Shown: positions 38,143-42,122 of the stretch, in pieces
Layout: every line of letters starts with the position of its first letter
How positions within the stretch are numbered: the stretch's first letter is position 1
Source: a virus
Lineage: Duplodnaviria; Heunggongvirae; Uroviricota; Caudoviricetes
IMG/VR virus record: IMGVR_UViG_2778261299_000011
Length of the DNA stretch: 42,122 nucleotides
Strand: one strand, 5' to 3'
Made by a program: the position numbers and the translations under genes
Notes under the pieces: generated by a model
What the model was told of the DNA's origin: nothing
The model's input: only the letters and a program-made list of their open reading frames with translations
Database searches by the model: none

Positions 38143-38960
38143 TGGCAAAAAATGACTTTAAAGCATTCGCAACGGGTAAAAATGCCAATGTTATGTCGCA
38201 GGAGGAATGGGAAGCGTTGCCTGCGCTTTTATCCGGATTTACAGCAGGGAAAGCATCCAGTGCGCAAGTCAATAAGGTTATTCGGCAGGCCAGCTTTATT
38301 GCTGCAGCTCTGGCCCAGTTTGTAAGTGACAAAACGCAACGGGATGTGCTTGATAATGGTGATCTGCCCGGTTTTGTTGAATTGCTGGGATCGGGGTTTG
38401 CTGTTGAATACCTGAGCCGCAAGAATCCGTTTGGTGATATCAAATCGGATGGCACGGTGAAAACGGCTCTCGAAAACCTTGGTTTGGGAGAAGGCTCAGC
38501 ATTACCTGTTGGGGTGCCTGTTCCGTGGCCTTCAGCCACTCCGCCAACAGGCTGGTTGAAATGCAATGGTGCGGCTTTTTCTGCTGAAGAATATCCCAAA
38601 CTGGCAAAGGTTTATCCGACAAATAAATTGCCTGATTTACGTGGTGAGTTTATTCGTGGCTGGGATGATGGGCGTGGTATTGATGCTGGGCGTGCTTTAT
38701 TGAGCCTTCAGGCTGGAATGCTGGAAAAACACCGCCATATGGTTGTAGCCAACGATGGGTATGATTCAAAAGAGGAATGGGAACTGGCGGCAATCTTCAG
38801 AAAAGCATATACGCAAGGCCGGGGGCTTGATGCTGCCGATGCCGGAGGGACTCTGATTCCATCACCAACGCTACATACACGAGGGAGTATTGGTAACACA
38901 GGTGGGAGAGAAACCCGTCCACGAAATATTGCATTTAACTATATCGTGAGAGCTGCGTAA
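38142..38960 (+). CDS. Tail fibre protein (constant N-part + currently expressed variable C-part with phage tail-collar domain), 272 aa
   Basis: ATG 38142 (ATGA overlap) gives [33 protein letters not shown]. The collar-domain motif is [38 protein letters not shown]...[19 protein letters not shown]. The invertase crossover site lies inside the gene at 38467-38492. Confidence 0.85.
38467..38492 (+). repeat. Left 26-bp invertase crossover site (pix/gix-like)
   Basis: CTCTCGAAAACCTTGGTTTGGGAGAA. Its reverse complement TTCTCCCAAACCAAGGTTTTCGAGAG shares its first 14 nt with the right site. Confidence 0.75.
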
Positions 38961-39562
38961 TGGATAAAGCCGTATTAAATAGCGAACTTATTGCCACGAA
39001 GGCGGGGAATATTACCGTCTATAACTATGATGGTGAAACACGGGAATATATTTCTGAATCAACTGAATATCTTGCTGTTGGCGTCGGTATTCCCGCACAT
39101 TCGTGTTTAGATGCTCCTGGTTCATATAAGTCAGGTTATGTGTCCTGTCGAACTCTGGATTTGAGATCATGGGAATATGTGCCAGACCATCGCGGTGAAA
39201 TCGTCTATAACACCGAAACGGGGGACTCAAAAGAAATCACAGTGCCGGGAGATTACCCTGAAAAGACAACCACTATTGCTCCGTTAACACCATACGATAA
39301 GTGGGATGGTGAGAAATGGGTGACGGATACCAAAGCGCAACATAACGCAGCAGTGGAAGGGGCTGAACTGCAACGCCAGTCACTGATTGATGATGCCATG
39401 TCTTCCATTGTTCTGATTCAACTAAAATTGCAGGCCGGGCGGAAGCTGACGCAGGCAGAAACCACCCGACTTAACGCTGTGCTGGATTACATTGACGCGG
39501 TGACGGCAACAGATTCCAGCACCGCGCCGGATGTCATCTGGCCTGAACTGCCGGAGGCGTAG
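38960..39562 (+). CDS. Tail fibre assembly protein (Tfa/U), 200 aa
   Basis: ATGA-type overlap with the fibre gene. The C-terminal ...LNAVLDYIDAVTATDSSTAPDVIWPELPEA is the Tfa hallmark. Confidence 0.85.
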   Translation: MDKAVLNSELIATKAGNITVYNYDGETREYISESTEYLAVGVGIPAHSCLDAPGSYKSGYVSCRTLDLRSWEYVPDHRGEIVYNTETGDSKEITVPGDYPEKTTTIAPLTPYDKWDGEKWVTDTKAQHNAAVEGAELQRQSLIDDAMSSIVLIQLKLQAGRKLTQAETTRLNAVLDYIDAVTATDSSTAPDVIWPELPEA

Positions 39563-39977
39563 GCCATTCAATATCTGGCGCACTGGAGGTATCAACCAGT
39601 TCCAGTGCGTCCAGATAATCCAGCCACAAATTATATTGCGCCAGTTCGTCACCTTTCAGACGACCAATAGCGGCTTTACCGGGCCATTGCTTACTGTTCA
39701 TGTATTCGTTGGCCTGGTTAATTAGTAGCTGTCTTTCTGATTCAGTAATTTCAATAAGCTCTTCATGAGTAGGTGGAGGAATATCTGCCCACGCAGGCAG
39801 CCCATCATCTCCGGCAATACGGATTTTTCCTTGTGGCGGTTCAGCCATAAACTCACTGATAATATTTTGATTTACTTCCTTAGCGTCTGATAAATCCCAT
39901 CCCTCTGATTTATATTTATCAATCATATCCACAGGAAAAAAAGCATTATGCCTTGCGCTATAAACATATTCGTTCAT
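39534..39977 (-). CDS. Alternative tail fibre assembly protein (U'), 147 aa
   Basis: ATG 39977 follows AGGGTG. The C-terminal ...YNLWLDYLDALELVDTSSAPDIEWPTPP is the Tfa hallmark. Convergent with U. Confidence 0.8.
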   Translation of the reverse strand: MNEYVYSARHNAFFPVDMIDKYKSEGWDLSDAKEVNQNIISEFMAEPPQGKIRIAGDDGLPAWADIPPPTHEELIEITESERQLLINQANEYMNSKQWPGKAAIGRLKGDELAQYNLWLDYLDALELVDTSSAPDIEWPTPPAVQAR

Positions 39978-39997
39978 ATAAATCACCCTGAATAAAA

Positions 39998-40369
39998 TTA
40001 CTCACCAACAGCCCACCAACTGTAATTCATCGATACCGTGTCGCTGGTTGATGACGTTCTGTAAGCAGAATTAAAGCCGGTTAACGTTGGGCCTTCTGCA
40101 GTCATCACGAACCCTCGCCCAGCGCCTAAAGGCGCACCGCCATCACCAGAATGAGTAAGCATGGCGCAGTCCGCTTTTTTGGGGAAAGGGATGCTGAATG
40201 TAATTCTCATTGTTTGCGTCGATAATGTCGGCGTAACCGCACCACGACCATATTGCAGGATTTTCCCGTTGGGTAATTTCATCCATCCATCACCACTGGC
40301 AAAAGAGGCCATGTCCGGTATCTGATTTCCCCCTGTCCCCACATCCCGTTTTGCCGCTTCTCCCAAACC
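39998..40369 (-). CDS. Alternative tail-fibre C-terminal segment (Sv'), silent in this orientation
   Basis: An open frame with no start of its own begins within the right crossover site (…NVGLGEAAKRDVGTGGNQIPDMASF…WWAVGE). Inversion would fuse it to fibre codons 1-~115. Confidence 0.75.
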   Translation of the reverse strand, partial: GLGEAAKRDVGTGGNQIPDMASFASGDGWMKLPNGKILQYGRGAVTPTLSTQTMRITFSIPFPKKADCAMLTHSGDGGAPLGAGRGFVMTAEGPTLTGFNSAYRTSSTSDTVSMNYSWWAVGE

Positions 40370-40383
40370 AACGTTTATGAAAA
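40358..40383 (+). repeat. Right 26-bp invertase crossover site
   Basis: TTCTCCCAAACCAACGTTTATGAAAA, in inverted orientation relative to 38467-38492, with a 12-bp identical core GGTTTGGGAGAA. Confidence 0.75.
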
Positions 40384-40437
40384 TGCAGAAATAATGAGCA
40401 AATGGCATCATTCCTGCTTTTGTCAGGGGGATCTACC

Positions 40438-40546
40438 ATGCTTATTGGCTATGTACGCGTGTCAACAAATGACCAGAACACAGATCTACAACGTAATGCA
40501 CTGAACTGTGCAGGATGCGAGCTGATTTTTGAAGACAAGATAAGTA
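40438..40546 (+). pseudogene. pin: Truncated Din-family serine invertase (pin), first 36 codons only
   Basis: MLIGYVRVSTNDQNTDLQRNALNCAGCELIFEDKIS is identical, as I recall, to the e14 Pin N-terminus. Homology and GC content then break. The catalytic Ser is present, but about 150 residues, including the HTH, are missing. Confidence 0.85.
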
Positions 40547-40608
40547 GTGCTATGGGGGTTAGGCATTATAATTGGTTGTTAAAAATCAATAAGTTTTGTA
40601 TTGTTGTG

Positions 40609-41142
40609 ATGATATTACCATCATGTTACAAGGTGTGGATTTTGGCGAAGTTACTATATGTAAAACCTATAACGATAAAAAAAGCAAATGAATTTGTTTC
40701 TATTTATCATCGACACCATCGACCAACGTCAAGGAATTCGGGCAGATGGGCTATAGCTGCCTACCACATAGATTCTGATGAATTGGTTGGTGTAGCGATA
40801 GTTGGAAATCCCGTATCTGCAACGTACATGGATGGTGTGACGGCAGAGATTACACGATTATGTGTCAGTGACAAATCTCCAAAAGGAACTTGCTCCTTTC
40901 TGATTAGTCGATGTAGCACAATCTGGAAAATGATGGGAGGAGAAAAAATTATTACCTATACTCTAAGCAGTGAAACAGGCGCATCTTTAAAAGGTGCTGG
41001 GTGGCAGTTAGTTGGGACTGTACATCCTCATAATCGTTGGGCCGATAAAGCAAAGCAGGATGGAATAATTAGGGATAATTTAGAAATATATAAACTGAAG
41101 AAATTTCGTTGGGAATGTTTACTCGGGGAGGTTCTAATATGA
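40609..41142 (+). CDS. GNAT-fold-like small protein (XF1762/Mom-type pattern), about 166-177 aa; start uncertain (ATG 40609, or TTG 40642 with AAGGTG SD)
   Basis: KPITIKKANEFVSIYHRHHRP, VGVAIVGNPVS, EITRLCVSD, CSFLISRC and IITYTLSSETGASLKGAGWQ match the pattern of a small phage/prophage acyltransferase-fold family from memory. The gene is AT-rich. Confidence 0.6.
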   Translation: MILPSCYKVWILAKLLYVKPITIKKANEFVSIYHRHHRPTSRNSGRWAIAAYHIDSDELVGVAIVGNPVSATYMDGVTAEITRLCVSDKSPKGTCSFLISRCSTIWKMMGGEKIITYTLSSETGASLKGAGWQLVGTVHPHNRWADKAKQDGIIRDNLEIYKLKKFRWECLLGEVLI

Positions 41143-42122
41143 GAGTTATGGCAGCGTTTAGCTCTGATTCCAGAGAACAATATAAAGCTGATATATTCAA
41201 GGTGTTAAGTTTGCCAAAAGGTGATGTCATTCATTTTAGATACAAAAAGAAATATGTTGAGGCTTGCATTTATCAACAACGGCAAGCGATAGTTGGTAGT
41301 GATGTATTCATTTATTTTTCGCAAGGAAATACAATGAATGAAAATAAAAAATTGATCCATAAATCAATTAGGAAGGCGAAAATAATTTCGTTTGACTGGA
41401 GTGATATGACCGAACTTTATCATGTTCGGATGATTCTTGGGGATTTTATTAATGCTGAAATTTGTAATCAGGGAGATGATGGGCTTTTCTTAAAATATAT
41501 AGAATGTAACGATTCTGATTATTATAGCAACTGGAAAAGTAGGGTGGAAGAAGTTAGGTGCGCATTTCCTGATATGATGTTTTTTTCTATTGATGGTATC
41601 CTTGACTCTCTAGGAAGAAGAGTTATTCCGAAATACAACCCTCAAAGTAAAGGGTGTTTCTATGAAGTATATCATGGTGATAGGTACACTATAAATATAA
41701 AAGTAGCGAATCTTGATGGAGCTTCTAAAAAATTACTTATAAATTGTAGTCCTGATGATGTTGTGATTGCACATTGTAATCCTATAGAATCATCTGTTGA
41801 TTATGATGATATTTATATTCCACTTAATATCAAAACGTTGCCTTTTTTTAAACACTCAAACTTTTTATCATATAAAGTAATTAATGTAGAAAGTGACGGC
41901 ACTAGTGGGAATTCTAATGGTGAAATTAAAGGGGGTGGGGTGGGTAAAAATGTTGACTTTGATATGTATACAGTGGCACAAGAACTATGTCTGAGACTTA
42001 ATTTAAAAAGTGCTATTATGTTTGGATTGTTATGTTTGATGGCTTTTTTGGCAATGGTATTCGTTAGTGATAAAAATACAATGATTGTTTGGCCCTATAT
42101 TAAAATAGGTATGTCGGCTATT
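41139..42122 (+). CDS. Unknown large protein, at least 328 aa, 3'-truncated by the window end; hydrophobic helix near residue 300
   Basis: Hand translation from ATG 41139 (ATGA overlap with the previous stop) is open to the last base. Product starts MRVMAAFSSDSREQYKADIFKVLSLPKGDVIHFRYKKKYVE and includes ...AIMFGLLCLMAFLAMVFVSDKN... It is absent from the supplied ORF track. Confidence 0.65.
   Translation, partial: MRVMAAFSSDSREQYKADIFKVLSLPKGDVIHFRYKKKYVEACIYQQRQAIVGSDVFIYFSQGNTMNENKKLIHKSIRKAKIISFDWSDMTELYHVRMILGDFINAEICNQGDDGLFLKYIECNDSDYYSNWKSRVEEVRCAFPDMMFFSIDGILDSLGRRVIPKYNPQSKGCFYEVYHGDRYTINIKVANLDGASKKLLINCSPDDVVIAHCNPIESSVDYDDIYIPLNIKTLPFFKHSNFLSYKVINVESDGTSGNSNGEIKGGGVGKNVDFDMYTVAQELCLRLNLKSAIMFGLLCLMAFLAMVFVSDKNTMIVWPYIKIGMSAI

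Follow-up and report, generated by a model that had tools for sequence, protein, structure and literature searches.

A foreign two-gene cassette in place of the pin invertase body couples a Mom-related XF1762 protein to a predicted membrane-anchored partner

Which genes have taken the place of a DNA invertase at the end of a prophage, and what might they do there? The question is raised by a 42,122-nucleotide (nt) stretch of Caudoviricetes DNA (IMG/VR record IMGVR_UViG_2778261299_000011; the window here means this whole stretch), in which the open reading frame (ORF) that starts as the invertase gene pin at ATG 40438 ends as something else. The first-pass annotation, made from the letters of the window, had proposed an acquired and co-translated conflict module at this position. 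Our comparative analysis confirmed the foreign insert and the gene pair, while a role in conflict or abortive infection is still what we infer from gene context. The insert is a horizontally acquired accessory module of two genes, referred to below as gene 1 and gene 2, and its insertion removed pin codons 37–184. The reading that we favour, with slightly less than an even chance of being right, is that of a conflict module which protects the host by superinfection exclusion or abortive infection, and in which one protein would write a mark that a membrane-tethered protein would read.

The left end of the cassette is sharply defined. The ORF is identical to Escherichia coli PinE (184 amino acids, aa) over exactly 36 codons and unrelated thereafter, with the break between 40545 and 40546. 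In megablast searches of 5,426 complete E. coli genomes, 2,100 matched just the first 145 nt of the region 40400–42122, which places the end of pinE homology at 40544. The change near 40546 after 36 codons of Pin, noticed at the outset, is therefore exact. The whole region was found in just six of the 5,426 genomes, at 98.8–99.8% identity, and was absent from the phage records searched. Furthermore, the GC content is 0.496 for positions 1–40545 and 0.347 for 40546–42122, and the two 60-nt counts originally given for the composition break (21/60 at 41161–41220, against 32/60 at 38461–38520) were reproduced exactly. AT-rich, rare and with a single fixed junction, the insert is foreign to its surroundings. 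The pinE remnant (40438–40545, plus strand; the first 36 of 184 codons) keeps its upstream promoter region, and the Pfam Resolvase match is confined to residues 3–38 of the ORF. Of the complete catalytic and DNA-binding domains of a Din-family invertase (about 184 aa), only residues 1–36 are left.

The remnant is followed by the junction and the cassette leader (40546–40641, plus strand), a stop-free segment in frame with pin, at which the GC content drops and which aligns with the leader of a Klebsiella oxytoca cassette from about 40578 onward. Gene 1 (40642–41142, plus strand) starts at TTG 40642, preceded by the Shine-Dalgarno sequence AAGGTG at 40629–40634. Seven homologues from other species share its N-terminus MAKLIYVKPIT and begin at the same position, and in the four with aligned DNA the start codon is GTG. 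Since the pin remnant is in frame with gene 1 and no stop intervenes, the ORF 40438–41142 reads as a 234-aa chimera, which accounts for the 234-aa ‘XF1762 family protein’ WP_000905006.1 in RefSeq. This entry, composed of Pin residues 1–36, a 32-codon leader and the real 166-aa protein, is an annotation error. The earlier size estimate of about 166–177 aa can thus be narrowed to a native protein of 166 aa, NCBI having annotated the chimera, and the peptide motifs quoted for it are present. Gene 2 starts in an ATGA overlap (41139–41142) and runs as an open frame of 328 codons to the edge of the window, both as first described. Its missing 3′ end is provided by an identical cassette in strain WAT (NZ_CP012380; locus L001, 12740–13774), where the protein has 344 aa, 16 of them encoded beyond the window, and ends in FYFFNKK.

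The combination of these two genes is not peculiar to the window. In about 46 of the roughly 50 loci that could be assessed, which come from seven or more bacterial lineages, a gene 2 homologue has an XF1762 gene directly upstream, so that the two genes do co-occur elsewhere. Our scan of species-representative genomes returned 14 gene 2 loci, from Gamma- and Alphaproteobacteria, Desulfobacterota, Bacteroidota, Bacillota and Chloroflexota as well as Luteimonas, and 12 of them have XF1762 directly upstream. The metagenome and viral scans gave 30 of 32 such loci; one of the other two is too near a contig end to judge and one has no XF1762 gene. Among seven diverse gene 2 contexts, six have an immediately upstream XF1762 gene on the same strand, encoding 161–166 aa and often overlapping by 4 nt, and the seventh (locus L010) encodes a 472-aa protein made of a Mom domain (28.7 bits, above threshold) and a YunG domain. 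The exceptions have another candidate writer, namely this Mom-YunG fusion or DruA (L033), or no detectable partner (L034 and L066). Genes 1 and 2 thus form an essentially obligate, translationally linked pair. The pair is even present in an organism that reads UGA as glycine (loci L037–L039, 4506–5726, scaffolds ERZ286339xx), where gene 2 encodes 241 aa and no hairpin; this reading (code 25, of the Gracilibacteria/Absconditabacteria type) follows from in-frame TGA codons at the conserved glycines of the homologues in both genes.

The dependence is one-way, as XF1762 genes often occur without gene 2 in temperate phages. Examples are gp66 of Burkholderia phi1026b, E. coli Kapi1_007 and the homologue in Pectobacterium ZF40. 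These proteins are of the same family and size and are 31–47% identical over most of their length. They differ in that they are encoded in early or replication regions, in one case next to a DNA methyltransferase gene and a ParB-like gene, and none of these phages has a gene 2 homologue. Moreover, the partnered proteins form a much tighter group: partnered gene 1 products are 57–83% identical to the window copy across very distant bacteria, and the gene 2 products there are 30–70% identical, gene 2 evolving about twice as fast as gene 1.

Could the cassette nevertheless be inert debris, left as a non-functional chimera when illegitimate recombination wrecked pin? The truncation of pin, the chimeric annotated product and the rarity of the cassette in E. 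coli (six of 5,426 genomes) would agree with such an origin. However, both reading frames are unbroken, the native start and Shine-Dalgarno sequence of gene 1 are kept, and at least seven bacterial lineages have conserved the pair. When two moderately diverged loci were compared, the ratio of nonsynonymous to synonymous substitution rates (dN/dS) came to 0.03 in gene 1 and 0.13 in gene 2, which indicates that both genes are functional and under purifying selection. We therefore regard debris as barely credible and continue with the view that the cassette is a working module, host protection being the likeliest of the functions weighed below.

A few loci show natural variation in the arrangement. 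In a PM2-like Vibrio prophage (L017, PQ189382.1, 1485–3005), gene 1 is frameshifted and gene 2 intact, and at L040 (4500–5985) gene 2 is split into two ORFs beside an intact gene 1. A YunG domain (PF24585) occurs twice near gene 2 homologues that have no XF1762 gene: at L010 (4557–5972) it is fused to the C-terminus of the Mom domain, and at L034 (3528–3941, minus strand) it is encoded separately and divergently, beside a transposase-like ORF. With a Gly-Gln-Cys motif and a later His, both copies appear to resemble a Cys-His hydrolase or transferase.

The identity of gene 1 could be established by profile searches. The protein matches the XF1762 family (NCBIfam NF045478) with 168.9 bits against a cut-off of 50 (E 5.6e-50; profile positions 2–143 of 143), and it matches PHROG 1384, ‘Mom-like DNA modification protein’, with E 2.9e-38. 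The Mom protein of phage Mu, a tRNA-dependent N6-adenine carbamoylmethyl transferase (Pfam PF25680), falls into the same PHROG (7.8e-84). The initial assignment of the first ORF to a Mom-related XF1762 family was therefore right. Recently, the crystal structure of Mom was shown to be that of a GNAT, and Mom was found to use Gly-tRNA-Gly (PMC13219725). Through this homology gene 1 probably has a GNAT fold as well. In Mom, the catalytic residues R111 and S124 have been shown to be essential; D149 and R151 are essential as well, and H58 and Y59 were compared alongside them. In an hhalign alignment, which is weak (E 0.002–0.02), the invariant H23, R72 and S85 of gene 1 align with Mom H58, R111 and S124, and the spacing between Arg and Ser is 13 residues in both proteins; Mom Y59 aligns with R24 of gene 1. 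Searches of PDB sequences with gene 1 by phmmer and hmmsearch gave chance lectin matches only and did not retrieve Mu Mom, and we found no mention of XF1762 in the searchable literature.

The differences from Mom are as instructive as the likenesses. Gene 1 encodes 166 aa and Mom 241, and after the catalytic Ser there are 81 residues in gene 1 compared to 117 in Mom. Nothing in gene 1 aligns with the helix-turn-helix (HTH)-like insertion of about 35 residues (Mom 175–209), the profile match ending before it, and this insertion is required by Mom for the modification of double-stranded DNA (PMC13219725). With the insertion missing and the Pfam gathering score for Mom missed, Mom-like DNA modification is a lead for gene 1 rather than a matter of membership. 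Judged from its sequence, gene 1 belongs to the XF1762 family and is related to Mom, yet falls short of two marks of the Mom family, the Pfam threshold and the insertion. It thus represents a minimal Mom-type core, and shared chemistry is plausible. The surroundings show both sides as well. Like Mu mom, gene 1 lies directly after a Gin/Pin-type invertase at a prophage end. The cassette differs from Mu in having no com gene and in coupling gene 1 to a membrane protein with no counterpart there.

The relation to Mom bears on whether the pair could be a toxin-antitoxin module that stabilises its element. In such a module, gene 1 would provide a GNAT toxin with charged tRNA (as for TacT, AtaT and ItaT) or DNA as its target, and gene 2 the neutralising partner; alternatively, the membrane protein would be the toxin and gene 1 its counterpart. 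Such an arrangement would suit the tight operon with its often overlapping genes and the location on mobile elements. Mom-type enzymes bind aminoacyl-tRNA (PMC13219725), over-expression of Mom is lethal in E. coli (PMC7261163), and combinations of GNAT and PUA-like proteins have been proposed as modules resembling toxin-antitoxin systems (PMC7641849). However, the known GNAT pairs (TacAT/AtaRT) have a small antitoxin gene of the ribbon-helix-helix or HTH type upstream. The cassette has no such gene, and the partner of gene 1 is encoded downstream, has 344 aa and is predicted to be membrane-anchored. Moreover, gene 1 is widespread without gene 2 and hence not obligately toxic. The broken gene 1 of the Vibrio prophage and the broken gene 2 of L040 are both tolerated, which suggests that neither gene alone is obviously lethal. 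An addiction function thus appears very unlikely to us.

Gene 2 had been described as unrecognisable apart from a transmembrane-like helix. This helix exists, the hydrophobic segment AIMFGLLCLMAFLAMVFV being residues 292–309 of the protein. However, an AlphaFold2 (AF2) model with a mean predicted local distance difference test (pLDDT) score of 85.9 and a predicted template modelling score of 0.82 shows a PUA-like N-terminal domain, an Ig-like domain and a transmembrane hairpin. The predicted PUA-like beta-barrel, presumably cytoplasmic, comprises residues 1–146 (41139–41576, plus strand), the barrel and its helices taking up residues 1–145 of the model, and carries an almost invariant signature in the alignment (AFSSDxRxxYKADI...HFRYKKKY...R78...T91...H95...W132). 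It is followed by a more variable Ig-like beta-sandwich (residues 148–249; 41580–41885, plus strand) and by a linker with a short strand that leads towards the anchor (residues 253–291; 41895–42011, plus strand), delimited by pLDDT and by alignment columns of variable length. Residues 253–271 of the linker are rich in Gly, Ser and Asn, vary in length, and look disordered in the model, with pLDDT <50. The part of the anchor that lies in the window (residues 292–328; 42012–42122, plus strand) contains the first transmembrane helix, a loop and the start of the second helix. The two helices, 292–309 and about 320–341 (289–310 and 318–341 in the AF2 model), coincide with the only hydrophobic peaks of the Kyte-Doolittle profile, and the C-terminal FNKK is nearly invariant. 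The lack of a signal peptide and the basic residues flanking the hairpin suggest that residues 1–288 are cytoplasmic and that the C-terminal hairpin tethers the protein to the inner membrane.

No match of gene 2 was found in Pfam (including EVE and ASCH), NCBIfam or PADLOC, and its sole family match is PHROG 30351, a family of unknown function. The fold of the N-terminal domain is more informative. Its structural matches include Lon N-terminal domains (score 7.3), YTH (6.6) and ASCH (5.5) domains, the N-domains of McrB, and VcaM4I, and among the ASCH matches is the N4-acetylcytidine amidohydrolase YqfB (5.3). Foldseek recovered the same superfamily, with the Lon-N type on top (E 3.7e-4, template modelling score 0.5). 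As a prediction from the model, the PUA-like fold class is solid. The invariant residues of this domain are mostly Arg, Lys, His and aromatic and would suit a phosphate-bearing ligand. A word-seeded search with gene 2 returned 28 clusters, and an exhaustive profile search returned 582 representatives at E<=1e-3, 142 of them at <=1e-30; among the 150 relatives listed, nearly all have 320–350 aa and match from end to end. Gene 2 therefore founds an unannotated family which belongs to the PUA-like fold class and to no described family. We also looked for fusions of the N-domain to other effectors, for which the profile search brought up nothing but members of this family in short or split form. 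One protein of the representative library (P0118, 868 aa) consists of a full gene 2-like protein and a multi-pass membrane tail of about 530 residues with no Pfam match, and may reflect either a genuine fusion or an error in gene calling.

A membrane-anchored partner would also allow a role at the cell envelope. FemX and synthases of the MprF type are built on GNAT-type folds and draw on charged tRNA. By analogy, gene 2 might hold a tRNA-dependent transferase at the inner membrane, where it would aminoacylate a lipid or cell wall precursor and thereby change surface properties or phage receptors. The fold and tRNA use of these synthases (FemX is discussed in PMC13219725) would be in keeping with this, as would the predicted membrane anchor of gene 2, the frequency with which cargo genes at prophage ends alter the cell surface, and the fact that the top Foldseek matches of the N-domain are of the protein-binding Lon-N type and not base readers. 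However, gene 2 has a hairpin only, with neither a periplasmic domain nor a flippase-like body, and variants without transmembrane segments occur. Furthermore, no envelope-biosynthesis genes are linked to the pair in any locus, and the Arg, Lys and aromatic residues that are invariant in the N-domain would suit a phosphate-bearing ligand. We consider envelope conversion distinctly improbable and return to a writer with a tethered reader as the reading that we favour.

How could such a writer and reader work? Gene 1 would transfer an aminoacyl or acyl group to the exocyclic amine of a nucleobase in a Mom-like reaction, and by analogy with Mom the donor would be a charged tRNA. Because it has no DNA-binding insertion, it may act on a non-duplex substrate such as a nucleotide, single-stranded DNA or RNA, or gene 2 may present the substrate. 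The PUA-like domain of gene 2 would read the mark made by gene 1, and the hairpin would convert this binding into a membrane effect which excludes or aborts a superinfecting phage. The specific version that we favour takes the mark for a self-written alarm; on balance we find it unlikely, but if true it would be a new kind of anti-phage system. Here, the Mom-type, aminoacyl-tRNA-dependent writer would mark the nucleic acid of the cell itself, degradation by an infecting phage would free marked nucleotides, and these would bind to the PUA-like sensor and trigger a collapse of the membrane, so that the cell is killed or arrested via the hairpin.

In abortive infection, the joining of a sensor domain to an effector that spans the membrane is a well-known design. 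The model is borrowed from the PUA-Cal-HAD system, to which we liken the pair by description and in which an N-terminal PUA-like sensor is joined to an effector. During infection, its PUA-like domain binds m6-dAMP from the host's own methylated DNA (bioRxiv 10.64898/2026.01.15.699771). In contrast to gene 2, the effector there is a calcineurin-like phosphoesterase with a HAD phosphatase, and the mark is N6-methyladenine made by the housekeeping enzyme Dam and not by the system itself. A coupling of acyltransferases to PUA-superfamily domains has been described for the predicted GNAT-EVE or (PIN)-GNAT-EVE and ASCH modules, which are often found in beta- and gamma-proteobacterial prophages or near restriction systems (Bell, Wolf and Koonin 2020, PMC7641849). 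However, the GNAT of these modules is of another clade and is fused to EVE, with ASCH as a separate protein, whereas the cassette encodes a separate enzyme of the Mom clade and a PUA-like partner to which an Ig-like domain and a hairpin are added. In addition, earlier work predicted fusions between Mom-family domains and restriction nucleases (PMC7824862). The pair itself is undescribed, while the logic of coupling a GNAT to the PUA superfamily was predicted before. This agrees with the earlier remark that no described system has this composition, as we found none in PADLOC or in the searchable literature.

The neighbourhoods of the pair point to a defence context. At locus L025 it lies 0.9 kb upstream of the Gabija genes gajA-gajB, and at L011 between a TIR-domain gene and the Shedu gene sduA. 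At other loci it adjoins genes for a HEPN_Toprim_N protein, a fusion of DUF4365 to a papain-type peptidase, or a Fic protein, and one gene 2 homologue is inserted into a Druantia operon (see below). Other copies are found on mobile elements. The pair adjoins the integrase at the icd site in lambdoid prophages of Klebsiella and Serratia, lies at the end of a P2/HP1-like prophage in Morganella and adjoins the integrase of the PM2-like Vibrio prophage; these prophage-end positions span four unrelated prophage types. In IMG/VR prophage contigs it is found no more than 1–2.5 kb from the contig ends. It is also carried by an element resembling integrative and conjugative elements, with a TrwC relaxase and an integrase. 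Among 50,697 phage records, just one contains gene 2, and that record is an integrated element; no homologue was found among 72,556 plasmids.

This distribution is important for the reading closest to Mu biology, namely counter-defence. In this case gene 1 would modify the DNA of the phage or lysogen against restriction as Mom does, and gene 2 would be its regulator, localiser or antidote; possibly, it could even be an ASCH-type amidohydrolase that erases the mark. The common remote-homology family with Mu Mom and the same post-invertase position as com-mom fit well here, and so do the XF1762 genes that phages carry in their early regions without the partner, in one case next to a DNA methyltransferase gene. 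Moreover, Mom is toxic and tightly regulated (PMC7261163), as would befit a partner that restrains it. However, gene 1 is missing the very insertion without which Mom does not modify DNA (PMC13219725), and a membrane anchor has no obvious role in anti-restriction. The near absence of gene 2 from phage records (one of 50,697, integrated) and its absence from the 72,556 plasmids weigh against this reading too, and self-protection by mobile DNA makes little sense for copies in chromosomal defence islands, near Gabija and inside Druantia. We therefore judge counter-defence to be unlikely, although less so than the addiction and envelope readings.

Several observations weigh against the host-protecting conflict module as well. 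The match of gene 1 to the Pfam Mom family stays below threshold (24.9 bits against 27.1; profile positions 2–132 of 202), and its partnered relatives straddle the cut-off (L011 with 27.4 bits, L027 with 19.1). The hhalign alignment to Mu Mom is weak, as noted, and the counterparts of Mom D149 and R151 fall outside its confident part and are ambiguous, the invariant E111 being a candidate. The hairpin of gene 2 has no recognisable pore-forming feature and may be a mere anchor, and gene 2 variants occur that have no hairpin or are split in two. Recognisable defence genes adjoin the pair in just about five of the roughly 20 loci with examined flanks, and the Druantia insertion is a single case. 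PADLOC-DB 2.0 gave no match for gene 2 and only a chance-level SduA match for gene 1 at E 0.009. Finally, the lethality of over-expressed Mom (PMC7261163) fits an addiction or antidote reading equally well. We nevertheless rank counter-defence, addiction and envelope conversion below the defence reading, because the insertion is missing from gene 1, the one phage record with gene 2 is integrated, some neighbourhoods are non-mobile, gene 2 has no periplasmic or transporter-like part, and natural variants exist with either gene broken.

The Druantia case deserves separate mention. In a metagenome-assembled genome of the Bacillota (L033, JAKSCU010000362.1, 2742–8754), a type I Druantia operon has a gene 2 homologue inserted between its genes druA and druB, so that DruA takes the place usually held by XF1762. 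DruA was identified with 5.4e-114, and DruB and DruC are 66–70% identical to those of a canonical operon. The window itself has no Dru genes, and none of DruA–E was found at the annotated homologous locus. A recurrent arrangement of DruA with gene 2 was considered and dropped, since the two closest DruA relatives (L041 and L075) have canonical operons without gene 2; the insertion is thus a single event. Homology of DruA to XF1762 or Mom was not detectable, as hhalign gave only a 24-column match (E 0.007, probability 5%) between profiles of low diversity. If the alarm version of our reading were true, the position of a homologue immediately behind druA would further make DruA a writer of an analogous kind, which would offer a possible way into DruA function. 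It would also provide a handle on the unexplained adenine-modification signal that was reported for type I Druantia in PacBio data (bioRxiv 10.1101/2024.04.14.589459).

Short XF1762 relatives are far commoner than Mom itself, and their substrate and role are undescribed; for Mom, the use of charged tRNA in DNA modification was shown only recently. Against this background, we find one tight XF1762 clade locked to an unannotated PUA-like membrane protein across very distant bacteria and in defence-type neighbourhoods. The cassette is a clonable two-gene system native to E. coli, with which it can be asked what XF1762 enzymes modify and whether a base mark made by the cell itself can serve as an infection alarm.

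The right end of the cassette lies beyond the window and was delimited in strain WAT by the distribution of the flanking DNA among genomes. The 150 nt 3′ of gene 2 are confined to cassette-bearing genomes, the next 127 nt form an arm common to many E. coli prophages, and the final 72 nt up to torT occur in virtually all E. coli. The cassette accordingly measures about 1.78 kb with a GC content of 0.34 and has two genes only. The first-pass annotation had allowed for further genes past the window; there are none, as gene 2 ends 16 codons on and is followed by the attR arm and torT. This arm (L001, 13925–14051), some 200–330 nt past the end of the window, closely resembles the lambda attP P arm and is shared with O157:H7 prophages and the DE3 prophage region of BLR(DE3). 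Because the attR arm is common to such prophages, prophages with different tails appear to share an integration module at torS-torT. An attempt to define the right junction with an intact-pin prophage gave no result: homology to ETEC-2264 stops at the same pin codon and never resumes, since its prophage sits at a different attachment site. A GC-rich hairpin (AGCCG-N7-CGGCT; L001, 13773–13789) overlaps the gene 2 stop and is terminator-like on the minus strand only.

The prophage sits between torS and torT and combines an early region of the lambda type (int, xis, exo, bet, gam, cIII, cI, cro, cII, O, P, nin, Q) with the morphogenesis module of a contractile-tailed myovirus. Within it, the cassette fills the cargo slot that separates the tail-fibre genes from attR. 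A lambdoid prophage of enterohaemorrhagic E. coli at the same torT site has the type III effector genes nleG and espJ in this slot, and in Mu com-mom are found in the equivalent position after gin, so that the slot behind the invertase is a cargo position as had been assumed.

A TATAAT hexamer inside the junction had drawn attention as a possible promoter. Its position (40567–40572) is correct, yet it offers no evidence of one: the best −35 hexamer at a spacing of 16–18 nt has two of six matches, there is no TG extension, and the hexamer is missing from the leader of the K. oxytoca cassette, the closest homologue. The promoter scan made no call in 40546–40641 and gave 12 promoter-like sites for the whole region where 10.2 were expected. 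TATAAT occurs once, compared to 1.9 times per strand expected from base composition, and is no more than a chance occurrence. A search of the cassette and its right flank against Rfam returned nothing at E<=0.1.

Upstream of the pin remnant, the invertible tail-fibre segment itself is intact. Its right inverted repeat (40357–40376) pairs with a partner at 38474–38493; the two crossover arms of 20 nt are 95% complementary and enclose 1.86 kb (38494–40356) with oppositely oriented alternative tail-fibre and assembly genes. As the invertase has lost codons 37–184, inversion now has to rely on a Pin/Gin-type enzyme encoded at another place in the genome. The insertion thus came at a cost to the phage, which lost its own host-range switching by tail-fibre inversion.

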